Positions 1 through 30,501 of a stretch of 45,651 bases of DNA are shown here, piece after piece. Under the pieces are notes generated by a model, which saw nothing but the letters and a program-made list of their open reading frames with translations, made no database searches and was not told where the DNA came from. How positions within the stretch are numbered: position 1 is the first letter of the stretch; each line of letters opens with the position of its first letter. The DNA is from a virus (taxonomy: Duplodnaviria; Caudoviricetes). The translations under genes and the position numbers were made by a program. The stretch spans positions 1 to 45,651 of IMG/VR virus record IMGVR_UViG_3300020183_003709. One strand, written 5' to 3'.

Positions 1-557
1 TCGAAGTTCCTAAGGTAATTTCTGTAAGATACAGATGCAAATGGATCCGCAGTACCCGAACAATAAATCATTTCAATTGAATCCGAAAATGTTTCTTCCA
101 TTTCTTCAATTGTAGTGTTTATTCTTTTAATTGACGATGAATTAGCAACAATCATATCTACCCTACAGGAAGGACATTTATAGTTACAAGTTCTGTCAAA
201 AGACATTTGTAAAATTGTTGGTCCATAATCAATCTTTGTTTTTTTCTCGAGTACGTTATCTTTTATATAATCAGGTAAATCTTGAATTCTTTTTATTGGT
301 CCAAAAATATCCATATTATAGTTCAAAAGTTGTGATAAAAATGGACATTGTTTTTTATCACAAAACCTATAAGATCCGTCCATAACAGACTCCCTTATTT
401 CCATAGCCTCAGTACTATTCCATAATTCTTTTAATGGTACGTTTCTTGGTAGTTCCTTTTTTAACCAACTCGCACAACACATAAAGTTTCGAGTTTCATG
501 TATTTCTAATGCTTGAAATGGAACAGTACAAACGTAGTCTTTCAAATCTATAATCAT
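1..557 (-). CDS. Radical SAM protein with N-terminal SPASM/twitch-like Cys domain (truncated by window edge; absent from ORF track)
   Basis: Hand translation from ATG at 557 (ATGA overlap with upstream stop): MIIDLKDYVCTVPFQALEIH...MCCASW...ELWNS...IRESVMDGSYRFCDKKQCP...FDRTCNYKCPSCR (CxxxCxxC)...IYCSGTADPFAS; open to position 1. Confidence 0.88.
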   Translation of the reverse strand, partial: MIIDLKDYVCTVPFQALEIHETRNFMCCASWLKKELPRNVPLKELWNSTEAMEIRESVMDGSYRFCDKKQCPFLSQLLNYNMDIFGPIKRIQDLPDYIKDNVLEKKTKIDYGPTILQMSFDRTCNYKCPSCRVDMIVANSSSIKRINTTIEEMEETFSDSIEMIYCSGTADPFASVSYRNYLRNF

Positions 558-1207
558 ATTAATCCGCTAATTTTTTGATTTATTCTAACCTTTTTATATG
601 GTGAGTTAATCCATTCATCAATACATGTTTGATTGTGTGATATTTTTAAATACTCTAATAACTTGTCTAATGTTGGTCTATCTTTTCTAATAAATAGATT
701 TTCATATGTAACCAAAGGATAACCCCTTTTTGACATATTTTTTAAAAATTCTGACTCATTCTCTAAGTGTTGGGATATCCCAAAAATTTCCTCTTCGTCC
801 TCTTTTTTCAAATCATAAAATTTTTGTTTATGCCAAAGTGGGGATATGGTTCTATTTTTTGATAATTTTAAATGATAGAATAGACTTTCAGCTTGTTTTC
901 TTTTGTCTTCTCTCTCTAATATTATAATTTTATCAAAATACGAATACACCCACACTAAATAATCTTCAAAACATTCAAATGATTCGTATGGGTAATTATC
1001 CCTATCTATAAAGGTTTTGACTAAAACATCATTCGTATTAATAAATTCTTCTATAGTTTTAGGTTTACTCTCTTTATCAATATTGAGGTAATTAAATGGT
1101 TCAAAAAAAAGTTTATGGTTCTTTTTTTCTTTTGTTAATAAACAATTAATGAGATAAAATAAGGATGTTGATCCACTCCTACCATTGCAAAAAATCACAA
1201 TTCTCAT
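554..1207 (-). CDS. Sulfotransferase-like protein (P-loop, Stf0-like)
   Basis: N-terminal PSB-loop-like GRSGST, FEPF, IILERED..QAES, VTYENL. Confidence 0.65.
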   Translation of the reverse strand: MRIVIFCNGRSGSTSLFYLINCLLTKEKKNHKLFFEPFNYLNIDKESKPKTIEEFINTNDVLVKTFIDRDNYPYESFECFEDYLVWVYSYFDKIIILEREDKRKQAESLFYHLKLSKNRTISPLWHKQKFYDLKKEDEEEIFGISQHLENESEFLKNMSKRGYPLVTYENLFIRKDRPTLDKLLEYLKISHNQTCIDEWINSPYKKVRINQKISGLI

Positions 1208-1749
1208 AATAATTTTTTATTGGTGTCTGATTTATAATATTTAAAATCAGTATTAGTTATCCAAATATTAAGAGCACATCTGATACCTTCATTAACCGGC
1301 ATTACACCATGATAAATTTTACTACCATCAAATGAAATACATTCACCAATTTCTAATTTATACTTTTCACATTCCTTAATATTTTTTGGTTTTTCTGAAA
1401 GTACAAATCTCCCATCAGAAAAGTTTTTTGATAATACTATGACCGTTGTTAATTGAGAAGTCGAATCTAAATGTAGGTCTAACCACCTTCCGTCGTAATA
1501 TTTGGTAAGGCTTATGTTAGAGTCTTTAATATGAAAATTGTTTAAATCAAACCATAATTTAAACTCTCCTGAAATGTATTTTTCTTTTAATTTACTTATG
1601 ATTTTTTCTTTAAATTCGTCAACATAAACTCTCTTACAATCCCATGTTTCGGATGAATGATATGAGAATTGTGTTCCATTTTCTTCACAAAATTTAATTA
1701 TATCATCACATTCCGACTCATCAAAAAATTTATTTACTGAAAAATTCAT
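1204..1749 (-). CDS. 2OG-Fe(II) oxygenase (prolyl-4-hydroxylase-like)
   Basis: HLD...HGVMPV..G.R facial triad and 2OG-binding Arg. Confidence 0.85.
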   Translation of the reverse strand: MNFSVNKFFDESECDDIIKFCEENGTQFSYHSSETWDCKRVYVDEFKEKIISKLKEKYISGEFKLWFDLNNFHIKDSNISLTKYYDGRWLDLHLDSTSQLTTVIVLSKNFSDGRFVLSEKPKNIKECEKYKLEIGECISFDGSKIYHGVMPVNEGIRCALNIWITNTDFKYYKSDTNKKLL

Positions 1750-2582
1750 ATTATTCGTTTATTTATGTCTTTAGTAATATAATTTAATATATTTTTCTCT
1801 AAAATCCAATGGTATAATTCTTTTGCAATTAATTGATAACCAAATTTATTTGGATGTTTTCCACCATAATGATTATCATCCCATAATTTTTTGTCTTCCC
1901 ATACCTCTTTTTTATTTGTTTCACATAAATGGTCTTTAAATGTTTTATTTGAAAAATTCCAATAATGATTTTTATTAATGTAATCGGTTTTATCTATTTC
2001 TTTCAAAATATTCTTCTTTATCATAGTATCAAATGCATCACAAAAAACATATCTAACACCAATTCTATCGAACATAAACTGAAGATACAGAATATAATTT
2101 TGATTTATAATATTATAATACTGATCAGAAAAGAGATTTTCTAAAAAGAATTCTTTGTAATCTTTTTTTAGATTTATATTTATGTGTGAGTCAGTATTAT
2201 TTAATTTGGTTGTATTTACGATGAATTGGTAAACGTGTTTTTTATTTAAGTATCTTTCCCCCCAAAAATGCCAAGGATTATCATCAGGAAAAAATGGTAA
2301 AGAATCTCTTAGAGATGAAGACCACATAATAACAACTAAATCATTTTTAGAAAAAGTTTGATTATGTATTGAATGGGAAACCACATCAAATATTGTTTTA
2401 TTTGATGATGCGCCCATTCCGAAATTACAAAACTCTATTTCCAATAAATCAGATAGATACTTCGGCCAACAAAAATTTTGTCTAATTTTAGTTCTCTCCT
2501 CAGGTGTGTTTGTTTTTCCCTCTTCAATTAAGTCACCGCCAACACCTTCAGTCCAACTATCTCCAAATGTAAACAACTTCAT
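1746..2582 (-). CDS. SGNH/GDSL hydrolase-like protein
   Basis: FGDSWTEG block I, NFGMGASSN, C-terminal HPN..GYQLIA. Confidence 0.7.
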   Translation of the reverse strand: MKLFTFGDSWTEGVGGDLIEEGKTNTPEERTKIRQNFCWPKYLSDLLEIEFCNFGMGASSNKTIFDVVSHSIHNQTFSKNDLVVIMWSSSLRDSLPFFPDDNPWHFWGERYLNKKHVYQFIVNTTKLNNTDSHININLKKDYKEFFLENLFSDQYYNIINQNYILYLQFMFDRIGVRYVFCDAFDTMIKKNILKEIDKTDYINKNHYWNFSNKTFKDHLCETNKKEVWEDKKLWDDNHYGGKHPNKFGYQLIAKELYHWILEKNILNYITKDINKRII

Positions 2583-2588
2583 AATTCA

Positions 2589-2729
2589 TTATGAAAGATG
2601 TTTTTCCTTTACCTTGTTAATAAAACTTTGAAATGCGTTAGAAACCTTTACCTTTAACTCATTTGATAAAGGTACGATAGTCGGTTTAATTGTTTGAATT
2701 GGTCTTTCTACTTTTACGTTGTTTGCCAT
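2589..2729 (-). CDS. 46-aa hypothetical peptide (below ORF-track cutoff)
   Basis: ATG at 2729 to TAA at 2589: MANNVKVERPIQTIKPTIVPLSNELKVKVSNAFQSFINKVKEKHLS; fills the gap between two co-oriented genes. Confidence 0.7.
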   Translation of the reverse strand: MANNVKVERPIQTIKPTIVPLSNELKVKVSNAFQSFINKVKEKHLS

Positions 2730-2751
2730 TACTACTTATTTTTAATATTTT

Positions 2752-4242
2752 TTATAATTTTGGTGATGGTTGACATCCTCCACAGGTGTTATCATAACAA
2801 TAGTTTCCACAGAATGACCAAGGACACCAACAACCGTTGTGCATAACAGTAAAATCACCATCACCAATATCAACTAAAAATAAATCTGATGGTTCAAAAT
2901 CTAATCCGTAAATGGTCATATTTGCATGTTCCATTTGTAAATTGGTTATTTCTAATGTTGTGAGTTCTTGTGTGTTTGAATCGGTGATTACTAATTTATC
3001 ACCAACATACATTTGGTTTAATTTTTCAAACTTTGTTGATAATGAACCTGATTCCTCTATATAGTACGTACATGACGGCGAATCAACCCAAGATTTACCG
3101 TCGGCGGTTGTTACTCTAATATAAATCGTATCAATTGATGCGGATGTAATTGTTTGTAAAGATGATGAAACTTGAGTAAGTGTTTGATTACTTTTTGATA
3201 AAGTACTGTCCCAACCTAATACGTCCATTTTACCCTCTTCAAAATTTGCGGCATGATTATCGTTAAAATCAATAAAGTCTATCGATCTTATATAGTCACC
3301 AATTTGAATTGTATTTACATCTTTTAATGAACCGGTATAATCTAAAATCACAGAGTCTTCATCGGTATGATAATTATTTACCGGATGTTTTTCTTTAATA
3401 CCCACCTCTTTTGTTATAAATCTATGTCTACTTTTTCTATTTAATATTGTAGTTCCCTCGATAAATTCATTATTAAAGAAATTAACAGGTACAACAGTGG
3501 ATTGTTTATATCCACCAAGATTTATTACATCTAGATTTGAACCATATACAATGTCGATACCTCTTATTATTGCATATTTTCCGTCCACCAAATTATCATT
3601 TGAAAAAATAAATTCTTGTATCAAATAATCCTCTGGTAAATTTGTTTTTAAATCATTTAACTGAGATGAATTCGATAAAACATGTATTTCAGGGTATAGA
3701 GATAAATCGTAATTTGGTATTCTTGATTTTATAATTGCATTAGGATTTTGAGACTGGTAGTCAACGTTAGTTAAAGTGTCTACGTTTCCGTTAGATGAGA
3801 CAAAATATGTATTTGGGACGTATGTACTTCCACTCATTAATGAAAAAAATCCAAATTTATCTGCACAGTAAGTATCATCAATAAGTGCGGTCGTATCATA
3901 TGACTGTCTCAAAATAAACTTGTTGGGGGCATCTTCAATAAACGGTACTGTAACAGAATTAATAGGAACAGGATATTCATTGAACGATATGTTGTTTTCC
4001 ACACATTTTTCTTGTAATTTTTGTTTAAAAACAAACGGACCATTTATTGGTGTATATGACTCTAGTTCGTTATAAATAAAATGAAATTCTGTTATGTTTA
4101 AAGAATTTAATGTATTAAATAACACGTCATAATCGAGAAACGACGCCCCGTCAGAATATATCGTTGTATTTGTGTTTGTCTCTAATATCTTAACGTCTCC
4201 GTTAATTTCTAATAAATCGGTACCTAGAATTACACCTCTCAT
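2752..4242 (-). CDS. Circularly permuted ATP-grasp-like domain + Hint (intein-like) domain + C-terminal 27-aa Cys-rich peptide
   Basis: N-terminal GTDLL..ILETN (ATP-grasp D...ExN motif moved to the N-terminus), ADKF..VPNTY, IIKSR, LIQEFI; Hint-like HTDEDSVILDYTGSLKDVNTIQIGDYI ... IRVTTADGKS ... MYVGDKL ... IYGLDFEPSDLFLV ... VMHN; tail GCWCPWSFCGNYCYDNTCGGCQPSPKL. Confidence 0.75.
   Translation of the reverse strand: MRGVILGTDLLEINGDVKILETNTNTTIYSDGASFLDYDVLFNTLNSLNITEFHFIYNELESYTPINGPFVFKQKLQEKCVENNISFNEYPVPINSVTVPFIEDAPNKFILRQSYDTTALIDDTYCADKFGFFSLMSGSTYVPNTYFVSSNGNVDTLTNVDYQSQNPNAIIKSRIPNYDLSLYPEIHVLSNSSQLNDLKTNLPEDYLIQEFIFSNDNLVDGKYAIIRGIDIVYGSNLDVINLGGYKQSTVVPVNFFNNEFIEGTTILNRKSRHRFITKEVGIKEKHPVNNYHTDEDSVILDYTGSLKDVNTIQIGDYIRSIDFIDFNDNHAANFEEGKMDVLGWDSTLSKSNQTLTQVSSSLQTITSASIDTIYIRVTTADGKSWVDSPSCTYYIEESGSLSTKFEKLNQMYVGDKLVITDSNTQELTTLEITNLQMEHANMTIYGLDFEPSDLFLVDIGDGDFTVMHNGCWCPWSFCGNYCYDNTCGGCQPSPKL
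2836..3369 (-). other. Hint auto-processing domain lacking the Cys/Ser-1 nucleophile, ending His-Asn
   Basis: Blocks A, B, F and G recognisable by eye; terminal HN codons at 2841-2836. Confidence 0.75.
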
Positions 4243-4267
4243 TTTTTAATTTAGTTTTACATTAATA

Positions 4268-4296
4268 AATATAACCAAATATAAAAACTTTCTAAA
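4268..4296 (-). promoter_or_regulatory. Putative sigma70-like promoter for the ATP-grasp/Hint gene
   Basis: TTTAGA-N17-TATATT in an 89-bp intergenic gap; overlaps a TATTTAT 7-mer. Confidence 0.4.
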
Positions 4297-4331
4297 TAGT
4301 TTTTTAAATTTTTATATATGTATATATCTAT

Positions 4332-4622
4332 TTAAATTATCGTTTTATTGTTTTTATTCTCCAATTTTTCAATAAATTTTACATCCACTTCCTTCCATTT
4401 TTTTATTGGACATGAATTATAAAATTTTGAGTATACCTTTTTACTTAGTGGACAACCGCATAGTTTGCAAATTTCGGACCATCTATTGTTTTTAAATAGT
4501 TCTTTTCTATGTTCACAACCTTCACAAATATTTAATCTTTTTTGAGCCAATATCTTTTCATCAGTACTTGGATTAATATAAGTAACCCAAGCATCAAATA
4601 TTTCCTTAAAATTAGGTATCAT
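4332..4622 (-). CDS. Small Cys-rich putative metal-binding protein (DUF6171-like)
   Basis: KRLNICEGCEH...CKLCGCPL..K.....CPIKKW. Confidence 0.65.
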   Translation of the reverse strand: MIPNFKEIFDAWVTYINPSTDEKILAQKRLNICEGCEHRKELFKNNRWSEICKLCGCPLSKKVYSKFYNSCPIKKWKEVDVKFIEKLENKNNKTII

Positions 4623-5380
4623 ATTAGTGTTTTTTTATTTTTTGGCAAGTCATAGTAGTCATAAATACTATTATATTTATTTTTAAATTCATCATTTAAC
4701 TCTAAATTAACTTTAATATCTGAACGTGAATTTACGTGTTTTAATATAAATTTTTTACCAGTTATATTTGAAACCCAGTCTTGTAATTTAGAGATTTCAT
4801 CAATATTAAACCATGTTATATTTTCATCATTATTATGCCAAATAGATTTTGGTGTAATTAGTATATTAAATATATTAATAAGATAACATTCGCGATTTAA
4901 TCGAGTTGTCCTTGGTGGTATCCTAACATATTTTTCTATAAAACCATTTTTTATCATATATTCATTTATAACCTTCCACCGTTTATCAATATTTGTTAAA
5001 TCATTGGAATTAAAAAAGAATAATTCATCTATTGATATTTTGGATAACCAATCTGATATATTATCCCACCCGGTTCGTTTGAGGTCAAAAACGACATGCT
5101 TGTATAATGAAAAGAAAGAATCATGCCTATCCCTATTCACTGCAATTACTGGTAAGTGATTTCCAAATTTTTCTTTTAAATCCATAAGTGATTCATGCCC
5201 ATGTGCTATTAAATCCATTATTTTAGATTCGTCTATATTTTTAAAATCAATTGAATCATTGTGTTCATCCCAAATGTTCAAATTTTTAACATCTAATCCA
5301 CTAAGTATACATGAATAATGAAATGAAGTGGAACCACATCTAGGTAAAGAAACATATAAAAATTTATTATCTACTAACAT
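4619..5380 (-). CDS. Sulfotransferase family 2-like protein
   Basis: FLYVSLPRCGSTS PAPS loop, HGH, VNRDRHDSFFSLYK, terminal HVNS. Confidence 0.7.
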   Translation of the reverse strand: MLVDNKFLYVSLPRCGSTSFHYSCILSGLDVKNLNIWDEHNDSIDFKNIDESKIMDLIAHGHESLMDLKEKFGNHLPVIAVNRDRHDSFFSLYKHVVFDLKRTGWDNISDWLSKISIDELFFFNSNDLTNIDKRWKVINEYMIKNGFIEKYVRIPPRTTRLNRECYLINIFNILITPKSIWHNNDENITWFNIDEISKLQDWVSNITGKKFILKHVNSRSDIKVNLELNDEFKNKYNSIYDYYDLPKNKKTLI

Positions 5381-6003
5381 TAAACTAAACTTTTAAATTC
5401 ATTTTTAACCTTGGCCGCGAAATTAAAATTTATAATAAATCTGTCTTCGGATATTGGGTAATTTGCATGATGTGCAAACCTTCCATCAAAAACCAAACAA
5501 CGTCCTTTTTTTGGTGATACTTTAGTTAACAACTCATATGAATTTAAATCAACTTTGTTAAAGTTTCCCCGATATGTTTCTGCGTTATTACCAAATTTAT
5601 TATTATATATATGTGTGTCTCCTGTTGAATCGTTTATATAATAAACCACAGCTATATGTTCAGTAATTCTATCATAGTGTAATAAATCCATTGGGTTATA
5701 TTCATGATTTAGTGGTTCCGTCCAATTTATTTTCCATCTATAATTTTTTACGAATTCCAAATCAAGTTTTTTACTTACTATAATTTGTATATTATCTATT
5801 AAACTTCTTATACTATCGTTTTTACAAGACATCTGAGGATGTACCTTGGCGGGGAAAAGATGAGTTTCTTTTTTTCCACCGTATTCACCGGTTATATTTT
5901 TCAAATCTTCCCACCTTATTGTTTCATCTTTAACATAATTGTAAATTACATCCTGTTCTTCTTTCGATAGTATGTCATCAAATACGTAATAATTGTGTTT
6001 CAT
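5380..6003 (-). CDS. 2OG-Fe(II) oxygenase
   Basis: HYD, YYINDSTGDT, PKKGRCLVFDG..HHA...RFIINFN. Confidence 0.85.
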   Translation of the reverse strand: MKHNYYVFDDILSKEEQDVIYNYVKDETIRWEDLKNITGEYGGKKETHLFPAKVHPQMSCKNDSIRSLIDNIQIIVSKKLDLEFVKNYRWKINWTEPLNHEYNPMDLLHYDRITEHIAVVYYINDSTGDTHIYNNKFGNNAETYRGNFNKVDLNSYELLTKVSPKKGRCLVFDGRFAHHANYPISEDRFIINFNFAAKVKNEFKSLV

Positions 6004-6007
6004 ATTT

Positions 6008-6667
6008 TTAAATAAAACTTTTTTCTTTTTTTATAAATTCAAAACCCACATTACCCGCCATAACTACTCTATCTATAGTTGCTTTTGGTGCATTATTTGG
6101 TGCATGTGGTATCGACCCTGGCATTATTATAAGTTCGTCTTCTTTTGGTCTTATAAAATATTCTTTATCGTTCCAACCTTTTATATATAAAACACCATCT
6201 TCATTTTCCATTACATCTGGCATTTGTATATAATAAACAAAAGTGTAATTTGGATAGAATTTTTTTTGGCTTTGGTTTATTTCAGTATGCGTATGAAATT
6301 TATCAACACCTTTTATTTCTTCATGTTTAAATTGAATTTGTATGGGATTTTTTGACCTTACTATGTTTATCCAAGCATCCGTATTTATTTTATTAAATTC
6401 TTTTTTTACATCATTTTCATAAATTTCTTTACAGGCGTTTATACCTTCTTGATGAATTAAGTCTAAATTATTTTTAATGTCAATTTTACCTATAAAATTA
6501 ATGTTTTGTTTCCACTCCTCTCTGTATCCGTAACCGTCTGTTTTAACGGTATCTTTTTTCGAATCTACTACAATATAAGACTCTCTTAATATTTCACTTT
6601 TTAATTTTACTAAATCCAAAGATTTAATCCAAATATATGTTTTATCATCAAAAAATATTTTTTTCAT
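6008..6667 (-). CDS. Putative 2OG-Fe(II) oxygenase (HxH type)
   Basis: HTH, FVYYIQMP, ELIIMPGSIPH, RVVMAGN. Confidence 0.75.
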   Translation of the reverse strand: MKKIFFDDKTYIWIKSLDLVKLKSEILRESYIVVDSKKDTVKTDGYGYREEWKQNINFIGKIDIKNNLDLIHQEGINACKEIYENDVKKEFNKINTDAWINIVRSKNPIQIQFKHEEIKGVDKFHTHTEINQSQKKFYPNYTFVYYIQMPDVMENEDGVLYIKGWNDKEYFIRPKEDELIIMPGSIPHAPNNAPKATIDRVVMAGNVGFEFIKKEKSFI

Positions 6668-7920
6668 TATATTAAACTTTTTGATATTCCTTTTTTATTT
6701 TTTTTAAATATGGTATTATAATTCTGTACAAAAAATGTCAACTCATTCTCTTTCCAATCATATAGTTCAAATGCACTTATTAAATCGGTATCATTTGTAA
6801 CCGAAATTTTATTTGTTTCATCTAAAATTAATTTTAATTTATTTGGTATCGGTGCGTTATATGCGTCTTTCCAAAATGGTGTGTTCATTCTTTCATTTAA
6901 ATAATGATATCGAATAAACATCATGTTTTGCTCATTTGTTTCTCTACATATTTTATTAAACGTGTCTTTATATGACACATCAAAATTATTATCGATTAAT
7001 CTTTTCAATTGTATAATAGTCGACATAAGTGAAGTTGCCTCCAATGGTTCTAAAAAACCATATGATAAACCAATAGAAATACTATTGCCTATCCAACTTC
7101 TCGTATGTGTTCCTGCTTTAAAATCAAATACCTTTTCTGTTTTTATTTCGTGTCCTAAGTATTCTTCAATTTCTTTTTTAGCGTCTTCAACAGATGTATA
7201 TGAATCGTTAAAAACATAACCACACCCCCAACGATGTTTTAATGGTATTTGAAACATCCAACCCGATTTCATAGCATGCATATAAGTATGTGTGAGGTCT
7301 TTATTTGTCAATTGTTTTGTTTGTGGTAAAAAGTAACCAAGTGCTTTATTGAGTAGTAGATATTTTGAATAATCTATCCATTCCTCTTTATGTACCCCTT
7401 GAATTATTAATCTAGCAAAACCACTACAATCAAATATAAAATCTAAATTAATTACGGTTCCGTCTGTTAATTCGATATTATCTATATTTTCTGACGTATG
7501 ATTTATTTTTTTAACTTGTCCATCTACCCATTTAACCCCCCTATCTATTGCGGTTTTTTTAAAATATTCAGAAACACGTCTGGCATCAAAATGAAACGCG
7601 GAATATTTTCTTATGTCATTTGTTTGTTTATTGATTTGATGAAATAGATGTTCGGATTGACTACCGACATGTGTCCAATTTATCAGTTTAATTCCATCTT
7701 TTGTTGTTGATCCTGTTTTTTTCGTAAAATCTTCAATGTTAATGTCTAATAATTTCAAAAACAAACCAAAATTAGAGGTTCCTCCTTCTCCTGCACCTAA
7801 TATTCCAATTTTAGAACTTTCAACTAGAGTGACATCCACATTTAACCAATATTTTTGTACAGATAATGCCGTTGCCCATCCAGCAGTACCACCACCAATT
7901 ATGATTACTCTTTTATTCAT
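6667..7920 (-). CDS. Flavin-dependent halogenase (tryptophan halogenase family); start corrected to 7920
   Basis: IIGGGTAGW, GAGEG, catalytic-Lys-like TKDGI, FHFDA, DCSGF, GWMFQIPL (WxWxIP variant), FLEPLEATS; ATG 7920 overlaps upstream TGA. Confidence 0.85.
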   Translation of the reverse strand: MNKRVIIIGGGTAGWATALSVQKYWLNVDVTLVESSKIGILGAGEGGTSNFGLFLKLLDINIEDFTKKTGSTTKDGIKLINWTHVGSQSEHLFHQINKQTNDIRKYSAFHFDARRVSEYFKKTAIDRGVKWVDGQVKKINHTSENIDNIELTDGTVINLDFIFDCSGFARLIIQGVHKEEWIDYSKYLLLNKALGYFLPQTKQLTNKDLTHTYMHAMKSGWMFQIPLKHRWGCGYVFNDSYTSVEDAKKEIEEYLGHEIKTEKVFDFKAGTHTRSWIGNSISIGLSYGFLEPLEATSLMSTIIQLKRLIDNNFDVSYKDTFNKICRETNEQNMMFIRYHYLNERMNTPFWKDAYNAPIPNKLKLILDETNKISVTNDTDLISAFELYDWKENELTFFVQNYNTIFKKNKKGISKSLI

Positions 7921-8477
7921 ATTAAAGTGTTTACAAAATTTTCTTTTGGTTCTAATTGAATCCAATTAACTAAAGAATATCTGACCCCTTCGGTCACTGG
8001 TGTTACTCTATGTAATAAATTAGAGTAAAATATAAATAAATTACCAATACCTTTTTGTAATTTTACTATATTTTTCTTCCCACTATCTATGCTTATTTCT
8101 AAACAACCTCCTTCATATTCATCATTCAATTGTAAAACTATTGATACGAATCTATTTTTATAATTATCTGATGAGTCGGTGTGCCAGTTATAAAATTCAC
8201 CAACCTTATATTCTGTAAATTGATACGGTCCTAATCCCGTAACTTTAAAACCTTTAACTTTTATTAGTTCTTCTAATTTAGTTTTAATTTTATCATCTAA
8301 AATTTCAATGTTATCTATAAACCCAACCGAAGACTTTCTTGCAAGTTCAGAGGATACATCAACCCCATCAATAGTTACTTCCGCCTTTTTTAATTTTAAT
8401 TCTAATTTATATTTTTCTAAAATGTAGGAAGATTCTTCAACCGTTAGAAAATTATTAATAATCCAAAATCTGTCCAT
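7917..8477 (-). CDS. 2OG-Fe(II) oxygenase (PKHD/P4H-like)
   Basis: YNWHTD, YEGGCL, HRVTPVTEGVRYSLVNW. Confidence 0.9.
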   Translation of the reverse strand: MDRFWIINNFLTVEESSYILEKYKLELKLKKAEVTIDGVDVSSELARKSSVGFIDNIEILDDKIKTKLEELIKVKGFKVTGLGPYQFTEYKVGEFYNWHTDSSDNYKNRFVSIVLQLNDEYEGGCLEISIDSGKKNIVKLQKGIGNLFIFYSNLLHRVTPVTEGVRYSLVNWIQLEPKENFVNTLI

Positions 8478-9047
8478 TTAAATAAGTGTTTTAGATTTTA
8501 TTGATGTAGGCCACGCATTTATAGAATACCTATTTCCTAATTCTATTACGTCAACAAAGTGGGATATATTAGAATCAAATAAAAAAATACTACCTCTTTT
8601 TTTTGGTAGAGTATTTTCAACTCCATCAATTAAATATTTAACATATCCACCTTCATAATTATCATTTAATTGAAGAATAATTGTAATTGTTGCCCCACCC
8701 ATTATTTCATGTTTATCCTCATGCCAATTTAAAAAATCACCATTAGAATATTTGTTAAAAGAATATTTTAGAACATTTTCATATTTTATAGATTTAAATG
8801 GTGTTGTGTTATTTGAAATATTAATTATTTTATTTGTTAAACTAATAATAAATTCATCCTCTAATGTTTCGTTAATAAAATAACAACCTTTTCTTTTATT
8901 ACCAACATACTCTAAATTTTGATTTATTATTTTTTCATTCAAAAATTTAGAAGACTTCATATCAATGAGATTTTTTGATTCACCTAATTTAATTAGATAA
9001 TCACATTCTTCTTTTGATAAAAATTCCTCTATAAATTTTGTAAACAT
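8478..9047 (-). CDS. 2OG-Fe(II) oxygenase (P4H-like)
   Basis: WHED, LNDNYEGG, HFV....GNRYS. Confidence 0.88.
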   Translation of the reverse strand: MFTKFIEEFLSKEECDYLIKLGESKNLIDMKSSKFLNEKIINQNLEYVGNKRKGCYFINETLEDEFIISLTNKIINISNNTTPFKSIKYENVLKYSFNKYSNGDFLNWHEDKHEIMGGATITIILQLNDNYEGGYVKYLIDGVENTLPKKRGSIFLFDSNISHFVDVIELGNRYSINAWPTSIKSKTLI

Positions 9048-9259
9048 TACATTTTATTTTTTAAACCATACTTAATCCAATTATACCAAACTCTTTCATG
9101 TAAAAAGTATATCAATGGTTTAATTACAAGTTCCCCTAAACCAACCATTCCTGCCCACTTCAATGGTAAACCCGCTGATACGGTTAATATAATTGTTGTT
9201 AATGTTCCAATAAATCTATAACTAATACTTTTAGCTATGTGTCTCTTTACCAGTGGCAT
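9047..9259 (-). CDS. DUF2061-like small membrane protein
   Basis: RHIAKSISYR, two hydrophobic stretches, YFLHERVW. Confidence 0.8.
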   Translation of the reverse strand: MPLVKRHIAKSISYRFIGTLTTIILTVSAGLPLKWAGMVGLGELVIKPLIYFLHERVWYNWIKYGLKNKM

Positions 9260-9596
9260 CTATTTCTCCTTTTCTAATTTTAGTCCCACTTATATCGGCG
9301 ATTTCTTGTGGGGGTTCGTGATAAATTACTTCATATCCAACACCTCTACCATAATTTACAGATTCGATATCGGGTATAATACTCAAGAATATTTTGTCAG
9401 AGTTATCTGTAAAAAATTTAGTGTTTGATAATTCCATTAAAATATCGTGTGCTTTCTTAGGGTTATTTTCGTCTTTAGGAACATCTCTGATTGCCACCCA
9501 AACGTTTTTTCCCTTATCTAATTGTTGGTTTATTAACCATTCATGTCCTTTGTGCCAATTTTGCCACCTTCCGATGTACAATGCATATTTTTTCAT
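9231..9596 (-). CDS. Minimal HIGH-family nucleotidyltransferase (possible ATP sulfurylase surrogate)
   Basis: GRWQNWHKGH (HxGH), YGRGVGY, ISGTKIR; adjacent to APS kinase. Confidence 0.75.
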   Translation of the reverse strand: MKKYALYIGRWQNWHKGHEWLINQQLDKGKNVWVAIRDVPKDENNPKKAHDILMELSNTKFFTDNSDKIFLSIIPDIESVNYGRGVGYEVIYHEPPQEIADISGTKIRKGEIDATGKETHS

Positions 9597-10030
9597 AAAT
9601 CAATAAATTTAATTAAATCGATGAATGACTCGTCATCTCTTTTGTTAGTGGTATCTAAATCAACATAATTTTCAGTCGGGGGTTCGTAATTATCAACGTG
9701 ATATTCTTCCCTTCCTCTTATGTCTTTTGTATGTACATAAATTTCAATTACGTTATTATCTTTTTTAAAACTATCTCTCATGTCTTTGTATGGTGAAACA
9801 AGTGATACCACAACTGAATATCCCTTTTCACTCATAAAACGAGCAATGTCTTGAGCTCTTTCTATATTCCTTCTTCTACCTGTTTCAGAATAATCTTTAT
9901 TGTTGAAGATTTTACGTAAATCATCTCCATCAATATGGATAACTCTCTCGGTATTACTCAAATAAGATTTTAAATGTTTTGCTATGGTCGTTTTCCCCGA
10001 TGCGGGTTGACCTGTAAACCAGTATATCAT
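9593..10030 (-). CDS. cysC: Adenylyl-sulfate (APS) kinase
   Basis: WFTGQPASGKTT, IDGDDLR, YSETGRRRNI, VSPY, YEPP. Confidence 0.92.
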   Translation of the reverse strand: MIYWFTGQPASGKTTIAKHLKSYLSNTERVIHIDGDDLRKIFNNKDYSETGRRRNIERAQDIARFMSEKGYSVVVSLVSPYKDMRDSFKKDNNVIEIYVHTKDIRGREEYHVDNYEPPTENYVDLDTTNKRDDESFIDLIKFIDL

Positions 10031-15460: not shown

Positions 15461-15994
15461 TTAAGTGGTACTATACAATTGTGGATATTCCGCAATTAGA
15501 TGTATACCTCCATTATTTATTGCATTCTCATACGTGGCTCTAATATCTTTCACTTCCAATAATTCATGTATCTGTATGTTGGGACACATAGTTTTAAATT
15601 GATTGATGTAATTACCCTTATGTTGATGTCCGGGGTCTAATGGTACGTCTGATCCTTTACCTACCCTTATAATCATATTTGGTAACCACTTATTATTACT
15701 CATCAGTTTTATTTTATCAACATGATTTACAAGTTGATTCGTTGCACAAATTAGGAAATCCCATCTTGGGTAGAAGGTTACCACATGATATCCATTCATA
15801 GACATACCCAAAGACATACCCATTTGTGTGTCTTCCATAACCGGTACTTCTATTAATTTTTCTTTAGGTACACCATCAAGTGTAGAACTCATAGGATTAC
15901 CAGGAAACAGGATTTGCTGACCAATAAAAATTGTTTTATCAATTTGACCAATCTTAGTCATCATTTGTGTTAATTCTTCTTTATAACTTGTCAT
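15461..15994 (-). CDS. ThDP-dependent E1-beta/transketolase pyrimidine-binding subunit (short)
   Basis: FIGQ, EVPVMEDTQMGMSLGMS, DFL..ATNQLVN, GHQH. Confidence 0.8.
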   Translation of the reverse strand: MTSYKEELTQMMTKIGQIDKTIFIGQQILFPGNPMSSTLDGVPKEKLIEVPVMEDTQMGMSLGMSMNGYHVVTFYPRWDFLICATNQLVNHVDKIKLMSNNKWLPNMIIRVGKGSDVPLDPGHQHKGNYINQFKTMCPNIQIHELLEVKDIRATYENAINNGGIHLIAEYPQLYSTT

Positions 15995-17184
15995 ATTAAA
16001 CTTTTAAAAAAATTATAATCTTTTTTATCGTTTACGATATTTTTTATTCTTTTCATATTCGATTCAAATCTTTTCTTATTTTCTGAGAAATATTTTTTAA
16101 AGTCAATTTGTTTAAGTTTTTTGACTTGCTCAAAATATAAAAATAACCTTTCTCTATTGTCTTTTTCTTTATCAAATGAATAATCGATAATATCCTCAAA
16201 CATATCTAATTGATATTTTTCTTTGAATCTTTCATTATGACCACAACTACCTAATATTAATCCTATTTGAGAATAATAAAATGGAATTAAAGATTTTTCT
16301 GTTATATGAATTACTTTCTCACTATGATAACTTGTTTCGGTAACTAAATTTACATACGAATGTTTATATGGATTCATTTCATAAGATTTATAAAAATCAA
16401 TAAAATACGGAGGCTCGTCTATTTTGTAATCGGTTTCATTTATACTATTTTTAATACCATAATTTACCAAATAATCAATATGTTCTTTATATTTTTTTAT
16501 ATCATCTTTATCTAATACATCTAAGAATAAGATATAAGAATATGAACCATCTAAATTGATGTATCTTTCTTTTATTTCATTACCTCTAAGTAGTGACCAA
16601 TCAATTTCATCTAAAATACCTTCATTCCTTAATAATACCAATAAAGCAAGTCTGTGACATTTATTCATTCTATTAAAACACATAAAAGTATTTTTTCTAT
16701 TTTCTTCAAAATTATACTTAAATGTGTTCATACCTTCCACCGCAACCAATGGTAATCTATTTGATGTGTGTACCTTTATTTTACTATTTGATTCTGACAC
16801 CAACCCATCAATAATTTCATTTCCATTTATTAAAATAATTTGTTCGGTATTTAAATTTTCATTTTTTGATTGCTCTTCTAAACAAATTATCACTCTATCA
16901 TTATCAGATTCATGTTCAGACAAAAAAACCGAAAAAACATTTTTATGTTTTCTCATAAGGTTTTTTGTCTTATGTGGTATTGGTAACGATTTATAATTTA
17001 AAAAATAAGGTTCAATATAAAAACCGGTTACAAGAATTGAATAATATTTTTCAGACTCATTTATTACAATATCATTGATATCAATAAACTCGATTTCCTC
17101 AATCTTGTAACCATACATCGTATTTACAATTAAGTCTTTATTACCCTCAACAGAACTATCGTATAAAACATTAAATTTTCTCAT
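15991..17184 (-). CDS. Putative GT-B glycosyltransferase of the [TS]EK[TS] family (paralog 1)
   Basis: FMCFNR...HR, YVNLVTET, HITEKSLIPF, IDYSFD. Confidence 0.55.
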   Translation of the reverse strand: MRKFNVLYDSSVEGNKDLIVNTMYGYKIEEIEFIDINDIVINESEKYYSILVTGFYIEPYFLNYKSLPIPHKTKNLMRKHKNVFSVFLSEHESDNDRVIICLEEQSKNENLNTEQIILINGNEIIDGLVSESNSKIKVHTSNRLPLVAVEGMNTFKYNFEENRKNTFMCFNRMNKCHRLALLVLLRNEGILDEIDWSLLRGNEIKERYINLDGSYSYILFLDVLDKDDIKKYKEHIDYLVNYGIKNSINETDYKIDEPPYFIDFYKSYEMNPYKHSYVNLVTETSYHSEKVIHITEKSLIPFYYSQIGLILGSCGHNERFKEKYQLDMFEDIIDYSFDKEKDNRERLFLYFEQVKKLKQIDFKKYFSENKKRFESNMKRIKNIVNDKKDYNFFKSLI

Positions 17185-20371: not shown

Positions 20372-21379
20372 TTATCTGTTTAAAAATTTACGACCGTTAT
20401 TTATTCTTAATCTCCAATAATCCAATAGGTCTTCCATTGTTTTATTATAAGGTATTTCTGGTTCCCATCCCGTATGGTTTTTAAATTTTGTTGTGTTAGG
20501 TATCTGTAGGTTAGCATCAATTGGTCTAAATCTATTCATATCTAATACCACTTCAATATTTGACACTTTAGATTTTGATAAAAGATATTCTAATGTTTCA
20601 CCAACACTACAGGTAAAATTACCTCCGATGTTGTAGTATTCACCCGATATTGGGTTTATTGTTAATAGCAACCAATATGCCCTAACAGCGTCTCTGACAT
20701 CCGCATATGTTCTAAGTGAATTAAGATTACCTACCAATATTTTTGGTTCTTGTAGTCCCGATTCAATCATTGCAATTTGTTTTGCAAAAGTCGATTCGTG
20801 AAAAACATCTCCTCTTCTTGGTCCTGTGTGAGTGAACATTCTTGTAGTCATGATTTTCATACTATAAGCTTCGGCGTAATATCTACCAATAAGATCAGTA
20901 CCAACCTTAGATATTGCATAAGGTGAAGCGGGATGTATACTACATTCCTCATCAATCGGTAATTTGTGTTCAGGTACTCTACCAAAAATTTCACTTGATG
21001 CACAAACATGTATTAAAGCATCTTTATATTCCGATTTTCTAATTGCTTCCAAAAGATTAGTAGTCCCAATAATATTTGTCTGTAATGTTTCAATTGGTGA
21101 ATCAAAACTTGTTTGAGGGTAGGATTGTGCTCCTAAGTGAAAAACATAATTAGGTTTTGATTTTTCTATTGCACATTGTATTGATGCGTAATCATTTAAA
21201 TCCCCATAAATTAGTTCGACTCTGTCTTTTTTATTTATCACTTCGGTCAAATGTTCAATGTTGTCCATAGATTCATTCCATCTACAGAATCCATAAATTT
21301 TTATGTTTGGTTTTTCTAAAAGAAAATCCAACATATGTGAACCAACCATTCCTAAAACACCTGTAATTAATACATTCAT
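20372..21379 (-). CDS. gmd: GDP-mannose 4,6-dehydratase-like SDR
   Basis: ITGVLGMVGSH, HLGAQSY...SF, SSEIFG, SPYAISK, GNLNSLR. Confidence 0.8.
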   Translation of the reverse strand: MNVLITGVLGMVGSHMLDFLLEKPNIKIYGFCRWNESMDNIEHLTEVINKKDRVELIYGDLNDYASIQCAIEKSKPNYVFHLGAQSYPQTSFDSPIETLQTNIIGTTNLLEAIRKSEYKDALIHVCASSEIFGRVPEHKLPIDEECSIHPASPYAISKVGTDLIGRYYAEAYSMKIMTTRMFTHTGPRRGDVFHESTFAKQIAMIESGLQEPKILVGNLNSLRTYADVRDAVRAYWLLLTINPISGEYYNIGGNFTCSVGETLEYLLSKSKVSNIEVVLDMNRFRPIDANLQIPNTTKFKNHTGWEPEIPYNKTMEDLLDYWRLRINNGRKFLNR

Positions 21380-22542
21380 TGATATATTTCTTTGAACATT
21401 TTTTCAGTTAAACTCCAATTATTCGGTAACCCGAAAGATTCAGCATAGTTAGCATCGAAATCACGAAGTAAAATTTTATATTCTTCTCGGTTTTCACCAA
21501 CTAAAGATTTTAATATACTTGGTATATATTTATCATAATAAACAATTCTAGTCGCTGTGTAAATATTTGCTTGGGCGACCCCGAGAATGTGGTCTCTAAT
21601 TTCGTTGTAATTTTTATCTTTGATGCCAAACAAATTATCTATTATTCCTAAGCATCTTAATTTTATAGAGTCACTATCATCAAAATCATAATTGAATATT
21701 TTACTATACAATCCTATACCATATTTTCTCAGATTGTCATTTTGATTTCGATTACCTAAAACTAAAAAGGGATTTCCAAATAAAATACTTCTGAAAGTTT
21801 TTTCAGTATGAAACATATATTCTGTGTTTTCCCCTCCACGACTCACCGTACAACCGGGGGCAGTCTCACTCACGATATCAATCAGATTTCCAGCATTGAG
21901 TAATTCTGAAGAAAAAACCTGATGAGTCTGCCTTTCATCTTTATCAATTTCAAAGGTTAATTTTCTCGGAGTAAAATATTCAAAATTCCATGGAGCGTCT
22001 GGGTAATTCCACGTGTTTATCCCATAATCAAACAATCCATATTTACAAAGATAATCCATCAACATACATCGATGATTCCTATCGTGGTTGTTCAAATTCA
22101 AATAAAGTTTTTTAATTACCTTTTGAGGGTCGAATAATTGTGCGGGTTCTTTTTTATAAAAAGATGTCATCCCATAAAAAGTATAATGCAACAAAGCGGT
22201 GGGCCAAAAAATGACTTCAAAATTTTTTATGGGATTGGTGTTAATATTTGAATAGGCTTCACTATAATCACATCCAACTAAAAGATAACATTGTATATTA
22301 TTTTTTACTAATGTATTTTCGAAATATTGGTATTTTTCAAGATGTTTTTTGTTATCTTTATAATTATACTCTAAATAATCCAAGAATCTTTCATCGAATG
22401 CCTCCCAAGGTTGCCAAATAATTATATGACCACTTGGTTTGATTTCTTCAATGAGGTCAGACACATCCTTAAGATTTTGTGTAGGGCCTGGCGGATTTAT
22501 TAAAAGTACGTTTTTGTAAAATCTATAGTTGACCATATTCAT
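21376..22542 (-). CDS. Putative GT-B glycosyltransferase of the [TS]EK[TS] family (paralog 2)
   Basis: YLNLN...HR, IDIVSET, FHTEKTFRSI..GNPF, FNYDFD. Confidence 0.55.
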   Translation of the reverse strand: MNMVNYRFYKNVLLINPPGPTQNLKDVSDLIEEIKPSGHIIIWQPWEAFDERFLDYLEYNYKDNKKHLEKYQYFENTLVKNNIQCYLLVGCDYSEAYSNINTNPIKNFEVIFWPTALLHYTFYGMTSFYKKEPAQLFDPQKVIKKLYLNLNNHDRNHRCMLMDYLCKYGLFDYGINTWNYPDAPWNFEYFTPRKLTFEIDKDERQTHQVFSSELLNAGNLIDIVSETAPGCTVSRGGENTEYMFHTEKTFRSILFGNPFLVLGNRNQNDNLRKYGIGLYSKIFNYDFDDSDSIKLRCLGIIDNLFGIKDKNYNEIRDHILGVAQANIYTATRIVYYDKYIPSILKSLVGENREEYKILLRDFDANYAESFGLPNNWSLTEKMFKEIYQ

Positions 22543-26398: not shown

Positions 26399-27015
26399 AT
26401 TTTATCAATTATTTTATTGTAAATGAAATCGGCTATTATTTTATATCCAATTAAATTCGGATGATAATCCCCTTCCCAAAAATTTTTATTGTCATTCCAA
26501 ACACTTCTACTTTCATATTCCCATACTGAAATATCGTTTTTGATTTCGTATTCTTTTAATACTTCAGAGATACATGTGTTAGGATTTATATAACTTTCGG
26601 GTAATTTTGAAATATCAAAATCTTCTTCCTTAAACATTGGAAAAAACGAATTAAAATAAAAATGTTTATAATCTTTTAATATTTTTTCAACTTCCCAAAA
26701 TAATTTAACCACGTCATTATCGTCTTTTATATATCTATATGGATATGAAAAGATTACGATAATAATATCTTCTTTTTCTAAAAAATTATTATTAACACAC
26801 TCTGTAATATCTTTTAGAATGTATGAATTACCGTAACCGCAAACGCCCATATTAACATATTCAACTGACATTCTCTCTGCAACCCATCTTGGCCAAGAGT
26901 TTTGATTTCTAAGTTTTTGAATAAAGATTGGTGGATGAGCAATTTTTTTAAATTGACTATCTTTTTCAATTCCGTGACCCGCAGTCCAACTATCACCAAA
27001 ACAAATTAATCTCAA
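26395..27015 (-). CDS. SGNH/GDSL hydrolase-like protein (paralog of 1746..2582)
   Basis: FGDSWTAG, NMGVCGYGN, DYHPNLIGYKIIA; shares R.(Q)N.SWP and VWE....W motifs. Confidence 0.7.
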   Translation of the reverse strand: MRLICFGDSWTAGHGIEKDSQFKKIAHPPIFIQKLRNQNSWPRWVAERMSVEYVNMGVCGYGNSYILKDITECVNNNFLEKEDIIIVIFSYPYRYIKDDNDVVKLFWEVEKILKDYKHFYFNSFFPMFKEEDFDISKLPESYINPNTCISEVLKEYEIKNDISVWEYESRSVWNDNKNFWEGDYHPNLIGYKIIADFIYNKIIDKI

Positions 27016-28329: not shown

Positions 28330-30501
28330 TTAAATCAATTTTCTATTTAATGAATTATATATTTCGAATATTTTTAATTGTACCTCTTTTAAACCATTAC
28401 CAACTTCACCATCGAATGTATATTTATCACGTTGCATTTCTATAAATCTATATCTATTGTGTTCACATATTTTTTTCATCTCTTCTCTAATTTGAATGAG
28501 TTCTTCAACCGTCTTATTTTTAATTGACTCAATTATATTGACTATTATTTCGACTTTTTCTTCTAAACTTTCGGATACATCATATGATTCATCAAACCAA
28601 TTATCAAATGTCTTAAACCCATTTTCTTTTAAAAATTTTAAAGTACCAGTATTACCAAGAATAATGAATGGGTGTCCAAGTGCTATGGGCTTCCATGTCT
28701 TTTCAGAAATAAATAATGTATTTTTATCTACTAATGTCTCTGTGACTATCGATACAAAAGTTTCCTCATAATCATTTAATGTTAAATCATTTGCCCAATT
28801 TATTTCTAATGATTTATCAATTATTATTGGAGTAAAATTATTTAAGTTAGATGCTAAATCATACCAAGTTTCATTAATAAATCTTTTTTCATCAAATTTT
28901 TGACAACTGACTTTACCGTATTCTAATAGATTATTTTGACACAATCTTGAAAGTAATAAAACTCTGTGTCTTCTTGGGTTTCTGTTATATGTTAAAAAAT
29001 GAAATTTATCTTTTTTAGGTTTAAATTCTATAGTGTTATAATATTTAACATCAATGTAATTTAACCAAAAATCGAATGATGATATTCCGTGACATTTGAA
29101 TTTTAAATTTTTGATTTTTCTAATTTCGTCAATAAGTAAATTACCTGAAAAATAGTGCACATTGCTATGTGGTAAATTAGATTGTTCTATCCATTTATTT
29201 ATAATTTCTAAATCATAATTATTATCAATTCCGCTATATCCCTCCATAATATTCATCATAATAATTGCGGATTTATATTTTCTAATGTCGTTCATATATT
29301 GTTCAGAAATACATTTAAATCCGACTTCTAAATTGTTAACGAAAAAAGAAGGATCATAAATATTTATAAAATAAATGTGATCATTGTCTCCTAATTTTTC
29401 TTTAGTTAAAAGCTCTACACAATCCTGATAAAAAGACGGCGTAACTAACTCTTTGAAAACACTTTGATTAAATAATTTATTATTTTTTTCGGTATTGAAA
29501 ACATTCCAATTACCCCACATTTTTGGTATAGTCATTGTACCCGTTTCCTCTAAGTACCATGTTCTTGATGACCCATTTGGTCTATGATAGTTTATTATAC
29601 TATCCCAATCTTCCAAACTGAATATCAATTTTTTACTGAAATATAAATTGAAAATACCATGTGAATATTTTATAGATATAAAATTCATTGGTAATAATTT
29701 TTTTAAAAGACTAAAATCAACAACATATGATCTACTATCTTTTGTTTCGTAGTATGATACTTTAAGTTTTTTATTTAATGATTTTTCAATTTTACTTATT
29801 AGTTCTTTTTTTGTTATGTTTAATTCATTAAAACCAACATTTATTATTTTATTATCAAAATCAAATGACATAACATATAAAAATAATTCAATACAATCAC
29901 TTATATGTAAGTGAGGTCTACTTGCATTTGAATCAAAAATTTCAATTTTTTTATTATTTCTATAACAATCAACTAAATTATTAATTAGAATATCATTTCT
30001 TAAAATATCTCCTTCTCCATATAATGTCGATAATCTAAGAATGACATAATTTAAATTTTCATATTTTGATATTAAATTCTCTGATTCTATTTTTAGTTTT
30101 GAATATAAACCTGTGACCATAACAGGTGAAGTTTCGTTTACATAATTTTGTGTTACTCCGTAAACACTGCAACTACTAGTAAAATAAAAATGTGTATTAT
30201 CCCTCACTAAATCTAAAACGCCCTTTAAATTTTTTAATTCTACCTCAATTTGTTTTTCATCTACAATTTCATCTAATCTTGGTGAGATTAAGTAAATAAT
30301 TTTATCAACGTCTTCAAATAAGTCTCTGTGAACATTAATATTTGCAATATCATCTTCTATGATTTTATCAACAAATTCAACTTTTAATGGATCATTAAAT
30401 TTAAATGAATCATATATTGTGATATTATTATCATTATCTTTTAATTTTTTACATAATTTAGTACCTATGTAACCAGCCCCACCGAATATTATAATTTTCA
30501 T
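28330..30501 (-). CDS. Fusion: N-terminal NAD-dependent epimerase/dehydratase + C-terminal [TS]EK[TS]-family GT-B-like domain
   Basis: N: FGGAGYIG, SSCSVYG, YSKLK, RPHLHI, DSRSY; C: FLTYNR...HR, VSIVTET, ISEKTWKPI..GHPF, FDESYD. Confidence 0.75.
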   Translation of the reverse strand: MKIIIFGGAGYIGTKLCKKLKDNDNNITIYDSFKFNDPLKVEFVDKIIEDDIANINVHRDLFEDVDKIIYLISPRLDEIVDEKQIEVELKNLKGVLDLVRDNTHFYFTSSCSVYGVTQNYVNETSPVMVTGLYSKLKIESENLISKYENLNYVILRLSTLYGEGDILRNDILINNLVDCYRNNKKIEIFDSNASRPHLHISDCIELFLYVMSFDFDNKIINVGFNELNITKKELISKIEKSLNKKLKVSYYETKDSRSYVVDFSLLKKLLPMNFISIKYSHGIFNLYFSKKLIFSLEDWDSIINYHRPNGSSRTWYLEETGTMTIPKMWGNWNVFNTEKNNKLFNQSVFKELVTPSFYQDCVELLTKEKLGDNDHIYFINIYDPSFFVNNLEVGFKCISEQYMNDIRKYKSAIIMMNIMEGYSGIDNNYDLEIINKWIEQSNLPHSNVHYFSGNLLIDEIRKIKNLKFKCHGISSFDFWLNYIDVKYYNTIEFKPKKDKFHFLTYNRNPRRHRVLLLSRLCQNNLLEYGKVSCQKFDEKRFINETWYDLASNLNNFTPIIIDKSLEINWANDLTLNDYEETFVSIVTETLVDKNTLFISEKTWKPIALGHPFIILGNTGTLKFLKENGFKTFDNWFDESYDVSESLEEKVEIIVNIIESIKNKTVEELIQIREEMKKICEHNRYRFIEMQRDKYTFDGEVGNGLKEVQLKIFEIYNSLNRKLI

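Follow-up and report, generated by a model that had tools for sequence, protein, structure and literature searches.

A shared C-terminal tail on unrelated phage enzymes tracks an ATP-grasp/Hint gene and its small partner

Ten proteins encoded between positions 554 and 9047 on the minus strand of a tailed-phage sequence (Caudoviricetes; IMG/VR record IMGVR_UViG_3300020183_003709, positions 1 to 45,651, the whole of which is referred to as the window) end in nearly the same few residues. Here, we report that this tail is real, selected and widespread, that its consensus is K-[T/S/K]-[L/I]-[I/L]-COOH on a basic and flexible linker with a strictly C-terminal position, and that it tracks an untagged gene of the same island, which codes for an ATP-grasp ligase fused to a Hint domain and a cysteine-rich peptide, together with a small untagged partner. 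The original prediction, made from the window alone, had offered docking, compartment targeting, packaging or degradation as possible functions. Of these, docking on the pathway module is best supported, because the tail tracks the ATP-grasp/Hint gene and its partner, while degradation is disfavoured because relatives without the ligase leave their homologues untagged. With a probability of about 45%, we read the tail as a non-covalent docking label that would be read by the ligase module and would gather tailoring enzymes. The tag system is unlike any system that we know, and its candidate reader has been narrowed to a two-protein candidate; we know of no phage or tailoring pathway that uses a shared terminal address on unrelated enzyme folds.

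A selected C-terminal tail on enzymes of different kinds

All ten C-termini of the original prediction were recovered with matching sequences and open reading frame (ORF) positions, as were two recurrences elsewhere in the window, FKSLI at 15991 and NRKLI at 28330. The tagged genes are, as reported there, variously separated by an ATGA overlap, a TAATG overlap and an 89-bp gap, and the 496-aa Hint ORF and a 46-aa ORF lack the tail. Ten of the 12 island ORFs end in two hydrophobic residues, and the strict form [ST][LIVF][LIVFM]-stop closes seven consecutive ones, compared with 1 of the 41 other minus-strand ORFs of the window; against a background of 0.86% of internal positions, this enrichment has a binomial p of 3e-12 (2e-8 under a 3% null). 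A thirteenth gene, at the window edge, is the eleventh tagged one, as its first 185 residues are identical (185/185) to those of the complete radical S-adenosylmethionine (SAM) protein of virus record L001, which ends IEKTLI. The carriers differ in kind. Four are 2-oxoglutarate (2OG)-Fe(II) oxygenases and a fifth resembles these weakly, two have a weak likeness to sulfotransferases, and the others are a flavin halogenase, an SGNH protein, a CxxC protein and the radical SAM protein. The proposed genome-wide comparison was run on four complete ligase-bearing relatives, in which strict tags concentrate near the ligase (23 of 96 ORFs within 8 kb versus 8 of 1178 beyond; p 5e-21).

Across 556 tagged proteins, the last residue is I in 71% and L in 27%, the second-last L in 76% and I in 21%, the third-last T in 32%, S in 31%, K in 16% and N in 7%, and the one before that K in 57% and N in 15%. 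Serine or threonine, which the prediction had made part of the motif, is therefore common (63%) but dispensable: 89 of the 120 best halogenase homologues end ELI, without S/T at the third-last position, and all 120 have two hydrophobic end residues. In ten tagged families, the motif stands at the very end of 429 proteins, is extended in 1 and is absent from 61. In the 253-aa protein of the window, the last four residues (250-253) have a predicted local distance difference test score (pLDDT) below 50 and are predicted to be disordered, and K247 and I253 are each conserved in at least 90% of 67 sequences.

By its own terms, the prediction would have been refuted if AT-rich codons and translation-start constraints accounted for the tail. 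This did not hold in a set of 1136 distinct proteins, drawn from 100 loci that surround the 496-aa gene, where many families are tagged and the core families of the flanks are untagged. Two hydrophobic end residues close 555 of 578 tagged-family genes and 22 of 237 core genes, a level that is partly circular, as the 14 tagged and 24 untagged families were picked after the tails had been seen; the comparison between overlap classes is free of this circularity. Within these classes, the tagged families score 177/182 at ATGA overlaps (core families 7/49), 133/140 at TAATG overlaps (1/30), 120/123 and 48/50 in two classes of short gaps (5/53 and 5/50) and 77/83 at gaps longer than 30 bp (4/55), corresponding to ranges of 93-97% for tagged and 3-14% for core families. 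Further, the third-last serine uses both codon boxes (TCN 114 times, AGY 56 times). Because the tail holds in every overlap class and both boxes are used, the data support a tag selected as protein. The alternative, that the tail arises secondarily from A-rich start regions and overlapping genes in a genome rich in AT and poor in Shine-Dalgarno sequences, does draw on features of these genomes, in which starts are A-rich and seldom have Shine-Dalgarno sequences and in which ATA makes up 74-76% of the isoleucine codons at the last two positions compared with a background of 46%. We give it almost no credence, since core genes with the same overlaps seldom end alike and the tail persists where genes lie apart; at the residue level it is refuted, and the DNA context shapes synonymous choice only.

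Association of the tail with the ligase module

The association was examined in loci anchored on the CxxC gene and thus chosen without reference to the ligase (79 loci returned, 75 new ones analysed). At least two strict tags are present in 38 of 39 loci with the ligase versus 5 of 36 without it, and in 22 of 23 ligase lineages versus 1 of 17 ligase-less ones after near relatives are collapsed. The ligase-bearing exception (L344) has looser tags, and the ligase-less exceptions are a 4-kb piece of a standard island and one lineage with antisense ORFs among virion genes, which are spurious in the one locus inspected (L408). In a test of 13 whole records, with family profiles built without the tails, the tag is carried by 52 of 72 members of tagged families in ligase records versus 0 of 7 in ligase-less ones. 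Ends of the form K-x-[ST]-phi-phi (phi, hydrophobic residue) close 33 of 1686 ORFs with the ligase versus 1 of 1021 without, and 22 of the 33 lie within 8 kb of the ligase. Three CxxC genes of the ligase-less genomes G006 and G007 are untagged, and in G006 the site between the matching flanks is empty and the CxxC gene bare. Ligase clusters less than 50% identical to each other go with an unchanged tag, and a search for tags changing in step with ligase clade returned one cluster only, with a slight F/M shift at the last position. In G031, an isolated ligase module goes along with five strict tags spread over 89 kb, which fits a reader acting in trans. Overall, presence of the tag goes with that of the ATP-grasp/Hint gene and of a small partner gene.

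This partner is an ORF of 25-50 aa that nearly always lies directly behind the ligase (81 distinct copies); it was not found there in L022, L035 and L158, and L019 ends at that point. Its profile finds a match next to the ligase in all 7 ligase records, and nothing better than E 0.05 in 6 ligase-less ones, and an Atlas lookup gave no usable result. Of the island families that recur in many loci, the two that are both constant and untagged are the ligase and the small ORF.

A separate observation concerns a 119-aa protein of no known family encoded outside the island (L103:2608-2967, L126:4507-4866), whose end also differs with ligase presence: KKTLI and KKLI in the ligase genomes G003 and G002, KKLKK and SKRSR in the ligase-less G007 and G006.

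The ligase-Hint protein and candidate readers of the tail

Structure comparison assigns residues ~1-280 of the 496-aa protein to a circularly permuted ATP-grasp fold, nearest to YgiC (7uka, Z 9.3), 3k1t (Z 9.1) and GspS (2io7, Z 8.9) and also matching glutathione synthetases (overall Z 7.8-9.3, root-mean-square deviation (rmsd) 4.3-5.1 Å, 9-15% identity). No Pfam or NCBIfam match was found in this region, and the Atlas placed it with an ATP-grasp cluster at 0.88, a lead only. In 125 full-length representatives from the best 150 among 360 clusters at 50% identity, D9 (123), E21 (125), N23 (125), R112 (125), K172 (123) and R227 (124) are 98-100% conserved, and these catalytic-type residues are also kept where the peptide is missing; from family knowledge, we take them to bind metal and nucleotide. 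Residues 292-469 form a Hint domain that resembles BIL and Hedgehog Hint domains in its fold (2lwy, Z 16.2, rmsd 1.9 Å over 136 residues) and in its terminal His-Asn (Asn469). It differs from them at position 1, where His292 stands and the first nucleophile is absent, and behind the Asn, where Gly470 is the +1 residue and homologues vary, mostly with G, S, P or A. The residues of intein splicing, Cys or Ser at position 1 and Cys, Ser or Thr at +1, are thus lacking; with no first nucleophile and the His-Asn kept, the domain should cut only behind itself, at its C-terminal end, without splicing.

The protein of the window ends in a 27-aa Cys-rich peptide, and the region behind the Hint domain is hypervariable, holding Cys-rich peptides, peptides followed by an S74 or second Hint domain, tandem Hints or a few residues. 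In three variants (L021:10001-11890, L193:1780-4077, L008:10001-11695), a second, Cys-starting Hint or an S74 chaperone follows the peptide, which could there be freed at both ends, and some variants have tandem Hints and no peptide. No ligase relatives were found in GTDB genomes, by a pattern scan of limited reach, or in INPHARED, where the CxxC gene likewise had no relative, and a scan with the distant ligase P0293 returned no matches.

Upstream of the ligase, the motif ATATTTAT occurs in 74 of 80 cases, mostly 23-39 nt before the start. The same motif precedes the tail tube (9/9), the sheath (7/9) and two unannotated genes of the head/neck region (9/9 each), and was not found before capsid (0/9), polymerase (0/8), helicase (0/10) or single-stranded DNA-binding protein genes (0/10); in G003, 15 of 64 genes of the structural region have it, versus 10 of 247 others. 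The motif is similar to the T4 late promoter core when the latter is read as its reverse complement, and is likely a late promoter. TAnnTTTG, which we take to be the host-type promoter consensus, precedes only 2 of 80 ligase genes. The motif was seen before virion genes across G002, G003, G006, G007, G025, G026, G033, G036 and G037.

In the docking mechanism that we propose, the ligase module, consisting of the ATP-grasp-Hint protein and its small helical partner, would be made late together with the virion proteins and would read the free tail, holding the enzymes non-covalently. The Hint domain would cut behind its Asn and free the Cys-rich peptide with a new amine, which the ligase may join to a carboxylate, most simply that of the small protein. 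The gathered enzymes could then decorate the freed peptide, its conjugate with the small protein or a virion surface glycan, and enzyme genes would plug in by gaining the tag. Such a tag would explain the swapping of enzymes in the island, since a gene that gains a short tail joins it, and the module is common, with its 360 ligase clusters at 50% identity.

Several observations weigh against docking on this module. In several loci, the Cys peptide is absent or 2-5 residues long while the neighbours stay tagged; being dispensable, it cannot be the substrate of all tagged enzymes, and we have rejected it as a universal substrate. One finding in favour of the mechanism, the presence of the halogenase beside 25 of 30 Trp-containing peptides versus 0 of 9 without Trp (loci with 5 kb on both sides), comes from only two ligase clusters and from a peptide parse that failed for some rows. 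Eleven of the 33 K-x-[ST]-phi-phi genes are more than 8 kb away from the ligase, ligase and small ORF stand without any tagged neighbour in L267 and L268, short untagged CxxC genes adjoin ligase islands, and the ligase-less set is small and partly fragmentary. Loci anchored on an HD-domain flank are muddier, with a strict tag in 30 of 31 ligase loci and also in many of 49 without, the latter being mostly cut short (of 19 records checked, 2 had the ligase elsewhere on the contig); in two of them, L162 and L165, there is one loosely tagged gene each and no ligase in the stretch. At the genome level, all 5 complete ligase genomes carry a glycan island, compared with 0 of 4 ligase-less ones (G006, G007, G036, G037; complete or largely complete), and about 25 families share the pattern of the ligase. 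The genome-level pattern therefore does not single out the ligase, and spatial clustering alone points there. Finally, 63 of 118 proteins scanned (116 of the 122 shared ones of up to 900 aa, plus two others) have no Pfam match.

These last observations bear directly on another reading, in which some other phage protein, for example one in the fibre-linked glycan island, reads the tail and the ligase is a fellow member of the pathway. The glycan island co-occurs with ligase and tags, some of its genes are tagged (15991 and 28330 in the window, and others in G025 and G026), and more than half of the shared proteins scanned are unannotated. The tags cluster at the ligase, though, which some 40-65 kb separate from the genes of the glycan island in G002, G003, G025 and G026, and glycan-island genes are mostly untagged; no PDZ, TPR, Clp or protease-adaptor family was found among the 118 proteins, and a MoxR-type ATPase is not confined to ligase genomes. 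We regard such a separate reader as rather unlikely.

The conserved ligase fold also admits a covalent version, in which the ATP-grasp domain would activate the tail carboxylate as an acyl phosphate and join the enzyme to an amine, which the Hint-freed peptide, a polyamine or the small helical protein might supply. The four-residue tag would then mark any enzyme as an acyl donor, which the ligase would weld late in infection to the self-released peptide or the small scaffold, so that a covalent assembly line with exchangeable members would decorate the virion. This version fits the fold family as well as docking does, and YgiC, GspS and glutathione synthetases, its nearest folds, are enzymes that activate peptide C-terminal carboxylates. 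The likeness to them lies in the permuted fold over residues 1-280 and the conserved D/E/N, K and R, and the difference in that the phage protein is phage-borne, Hint-fused, 9-15% identical and without a Pfam or NCBIfam match. A review describes YgiC as a peptide-spermidine ligase (PMC11762307). The near-invariance of the six residues, also in peptide-less ligases, and a long, flexible tag that tolerates no extension favour the covalent version as well. Against it, non-covalent readers of free C-termini need the carboxylate too, and the small ORF could as well be the substrate, being just as constant and remaining beside the ligase in loci that lack tagged neighbours. We consider the covalent version possible, if on the unlikely side; a covalent link would mean a tag-directed protein ligase of a new kind, with a handle of four residues.

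Reading by the host is a further alternative, in which the tail would be a degron and time enzyme turnover through ClpXP, Lon or a tail-specific PDZ protease. Class I PDZ ligands, with the pattern [ST]-x-phi-COOH, resemble the tag, and PDZ domains are usually tolerant at the second-last residue. The prediction had drawn this PDZ analogy, which turned out to be weak: a free hydrophobic C-terminus and, in 63% of the tags, S/T two before the last residue are shared, whereas the second-last residue of the tag is almost always L or I, Lys is preferred one further back and K, N, E or Y replace S/T. The PDZ model PF00595 matched none of 5 phage records (3 at least 90% complete), a search with a single Pfam model over phage proteins; as a control, it matched in 14 genomes. 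The basic residues before a non-polar end likewise recall ClpX C-motif 2 (MuA RRKKAI; RAKKVA; PMC9775585). This motif, however, pairs basic residues with a short Ala-containing end, and the five examples tabulated in that source all have Ala in the last two places, whereas the tag has none, occurs on a single set of enzymes and goes with a phage module. Further, ligase-less relatives, which probably have similar hosts, leave homologues untagged (the 0 of 7 and the three CxxC genes above), and a hydrophobic N-terminal stretch occurs in only 3 of 556 tagged proteins, so that periplasmic PDZ proteases would probably not meet the tagged enzymes. A host-read degron is accordingly improbable.

Shared terminal addresses on a dozen unrelated folds are familiar from organelles and microcompartments, where peroxisomal PTS1 and microcompartment or encapsulin cargo peptides act as short terminal addresses for a single receptor. 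The phage tag is like them in being one short address on unrelated enzymes and differs in sequence, in its candidate reader being an enzyme, and in that no TPR receptor or shell protein was found among the proteins scanned. In clusters for ribosomally synthesised and post-translationally modified peptides (RiPPs), including graspetides, a recognition mark on the substrate is read by each enzyme. The island is RiPP-like in combining a Cys-rich peptide with ATP-grasp, halogenase, 2OG oxygenase, radical SAM and sulfotransferase-like proteins in one cluster. It differs in that the mark sits on the enzymes, a ligase of permuted GspS type is joined through Hint to the peptide in a single polypeptide, and the peptide, the expected precursor, is dispensable; the small ORF could be a precursor. 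No leader-recognition family was matched in the island proteins, although profile scans can miss such elements. A fungal ATP-grasp enzyme, Cp1B, is described in PMC12568646. The Moraphage paper (PMC12619734) makes, in its accessible part, no mention of oxygenase, halogenase, ATP-grasp or C-terminal, and a literature search that covered few subscription journals found no description of the tag or module.

The island and its phage setting

The features of the island and the two outlying tagged genes are given in Table 1. The phage family phrog_274, matched by the weak oxygenase look-alike, is also matched by the other island oxygenases. The 253-aa protein has many sulfotransferase matches, none at E<=0.001, so its fold assignment stays weak. 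The protein at 554..1207 has a sulfotransferase-like N-terminal motif by eye, and 51 of its 54 family members are tagged. Shorter, untagged forms of the CxxC protein occur in ligase-less relatives and at island edges.

Table 1. Features of the tagged island and outlying tagged genes in the window (all on the minus strand).
Positions	Strand	Feature	C-terminus	Basis
8478..9047	-	2OG-Fe(II) oxygenase	SKTLI	PF13640, E 1e-9
7917..8477	-	2OG-Fe(II) oxygenase	VNTLI	PF13640, E 1e-16
6667..7920	-	flavin-dependent (tryptophan-type) halogenase, 417 aa	SKSLI	PF04820, E 1e-83
6008..6667	-	2OG-oxygenase-like (weak)	EKSFI	no Pfam match; phrog_274, E 7e-6
5380..6003	-	2OG-Fe(II) oxygenase	FKSLV	PF13640, E 5e-5, below cut-off
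4619..5380	-	sulfotransferase-like (weak), 253 aa	KKTLI	heparan sulfate 2-O-sulfotransferase, E 0.026
4332..4622	-	CxxC protein, 96 aa	NKTII	phrog_13558
4265..4272	-	ATATTTAT motif, putative late promoter, 23 nt upstream of ligase start		motif scan
2752..4242	-	ATP-grasp ligase-Hint-Cys peptide, 496 aa	untagged	structural comparison
2589..2729	-	46-aa ORF, predicted amphipathic C-terminal helix	untagged	constant downstream partner of ligase
1746..2582	-	SGNH/GDSL-like	NKRII	PF00657 and PF19547
1204..1749	-	2OG-Fe(II) oxygenase	NKKLL	PF13640, E 6e-8
554..1207	-	no known family	ISGLI	no Pfam match
1..557	-	twitch-type radical SAM gene, first 185 codons		NF033640, E 4e-13, below cut-off
15991..17184	-	outlying tagged gene in glycan island	FKSLI	no Pfam match
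28330..30501	-	outlying gene, epimerase fused to a further domain	NRKLI	domain and ORF scan

The ligase of the window matches virus records L001 and L002 at 100%. The relative G003 is a T4-like jumbo phage of 289 kb with Gp23 capsid, T4 portal, tube and sheath; these features are seen in G003, and the window itself shows the tail-fibre end only. The capsid protein of G003 shares 52% identity with its counterpart in Flavobacterium Immutovirus and 53% with that in a record bearing the label Microcystis phage. Given these capsid relatives and the Shine-Dalgarno-poor, A-rich starts, a Bacteroidota host is likely. In G002 (C1:172790-184270), the entire tagged island is inverted as a block relative to its flanks.

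Directly upstream of the tagged genes (9231-10030, minus strand), the window carries an adenosine 5'-phosphosulfate (APS) kinase and a 121-aa HxGH protein, nucleotidyltransferase-like by eye; both are untagged, and the pair could supply 3'-phosphoadenosine 5'-phosphosulfate (PAPS). In other loci, a methyltransferase-like gene fused to an oxygenase-like domain is tagged (L269:14869-15912, KKTLI), and one standing alone is untagged (L267:14858-15394).

The glycan island of 34 kb lies behind the tail-fibre gene (10063-43889, minus strand) and holds GT2, GT7 with LamG, GT25, epimerases, DegT aminotransferases, a thiamine pyrophosphate (TPP) enzyme pair, a carbamoyltransferase and two radical SAM genes. 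The genes at 15991-17184, 21376-22542 and 27012-28322 and the C-terminal part of 28330-30501 appear by eye to be paralogues, with no Pfam match; only some of the homologous copies in relatives carry the tag, and the gene at 27012 ends FKSLMS. At the end of the window (44689-45651, minus strand), the tail-fibre gene closes with long Ser/Gly/Thr repeats, followed by an S74 chaperone, and these repeats are a possible glycosylation target of the glycan island.

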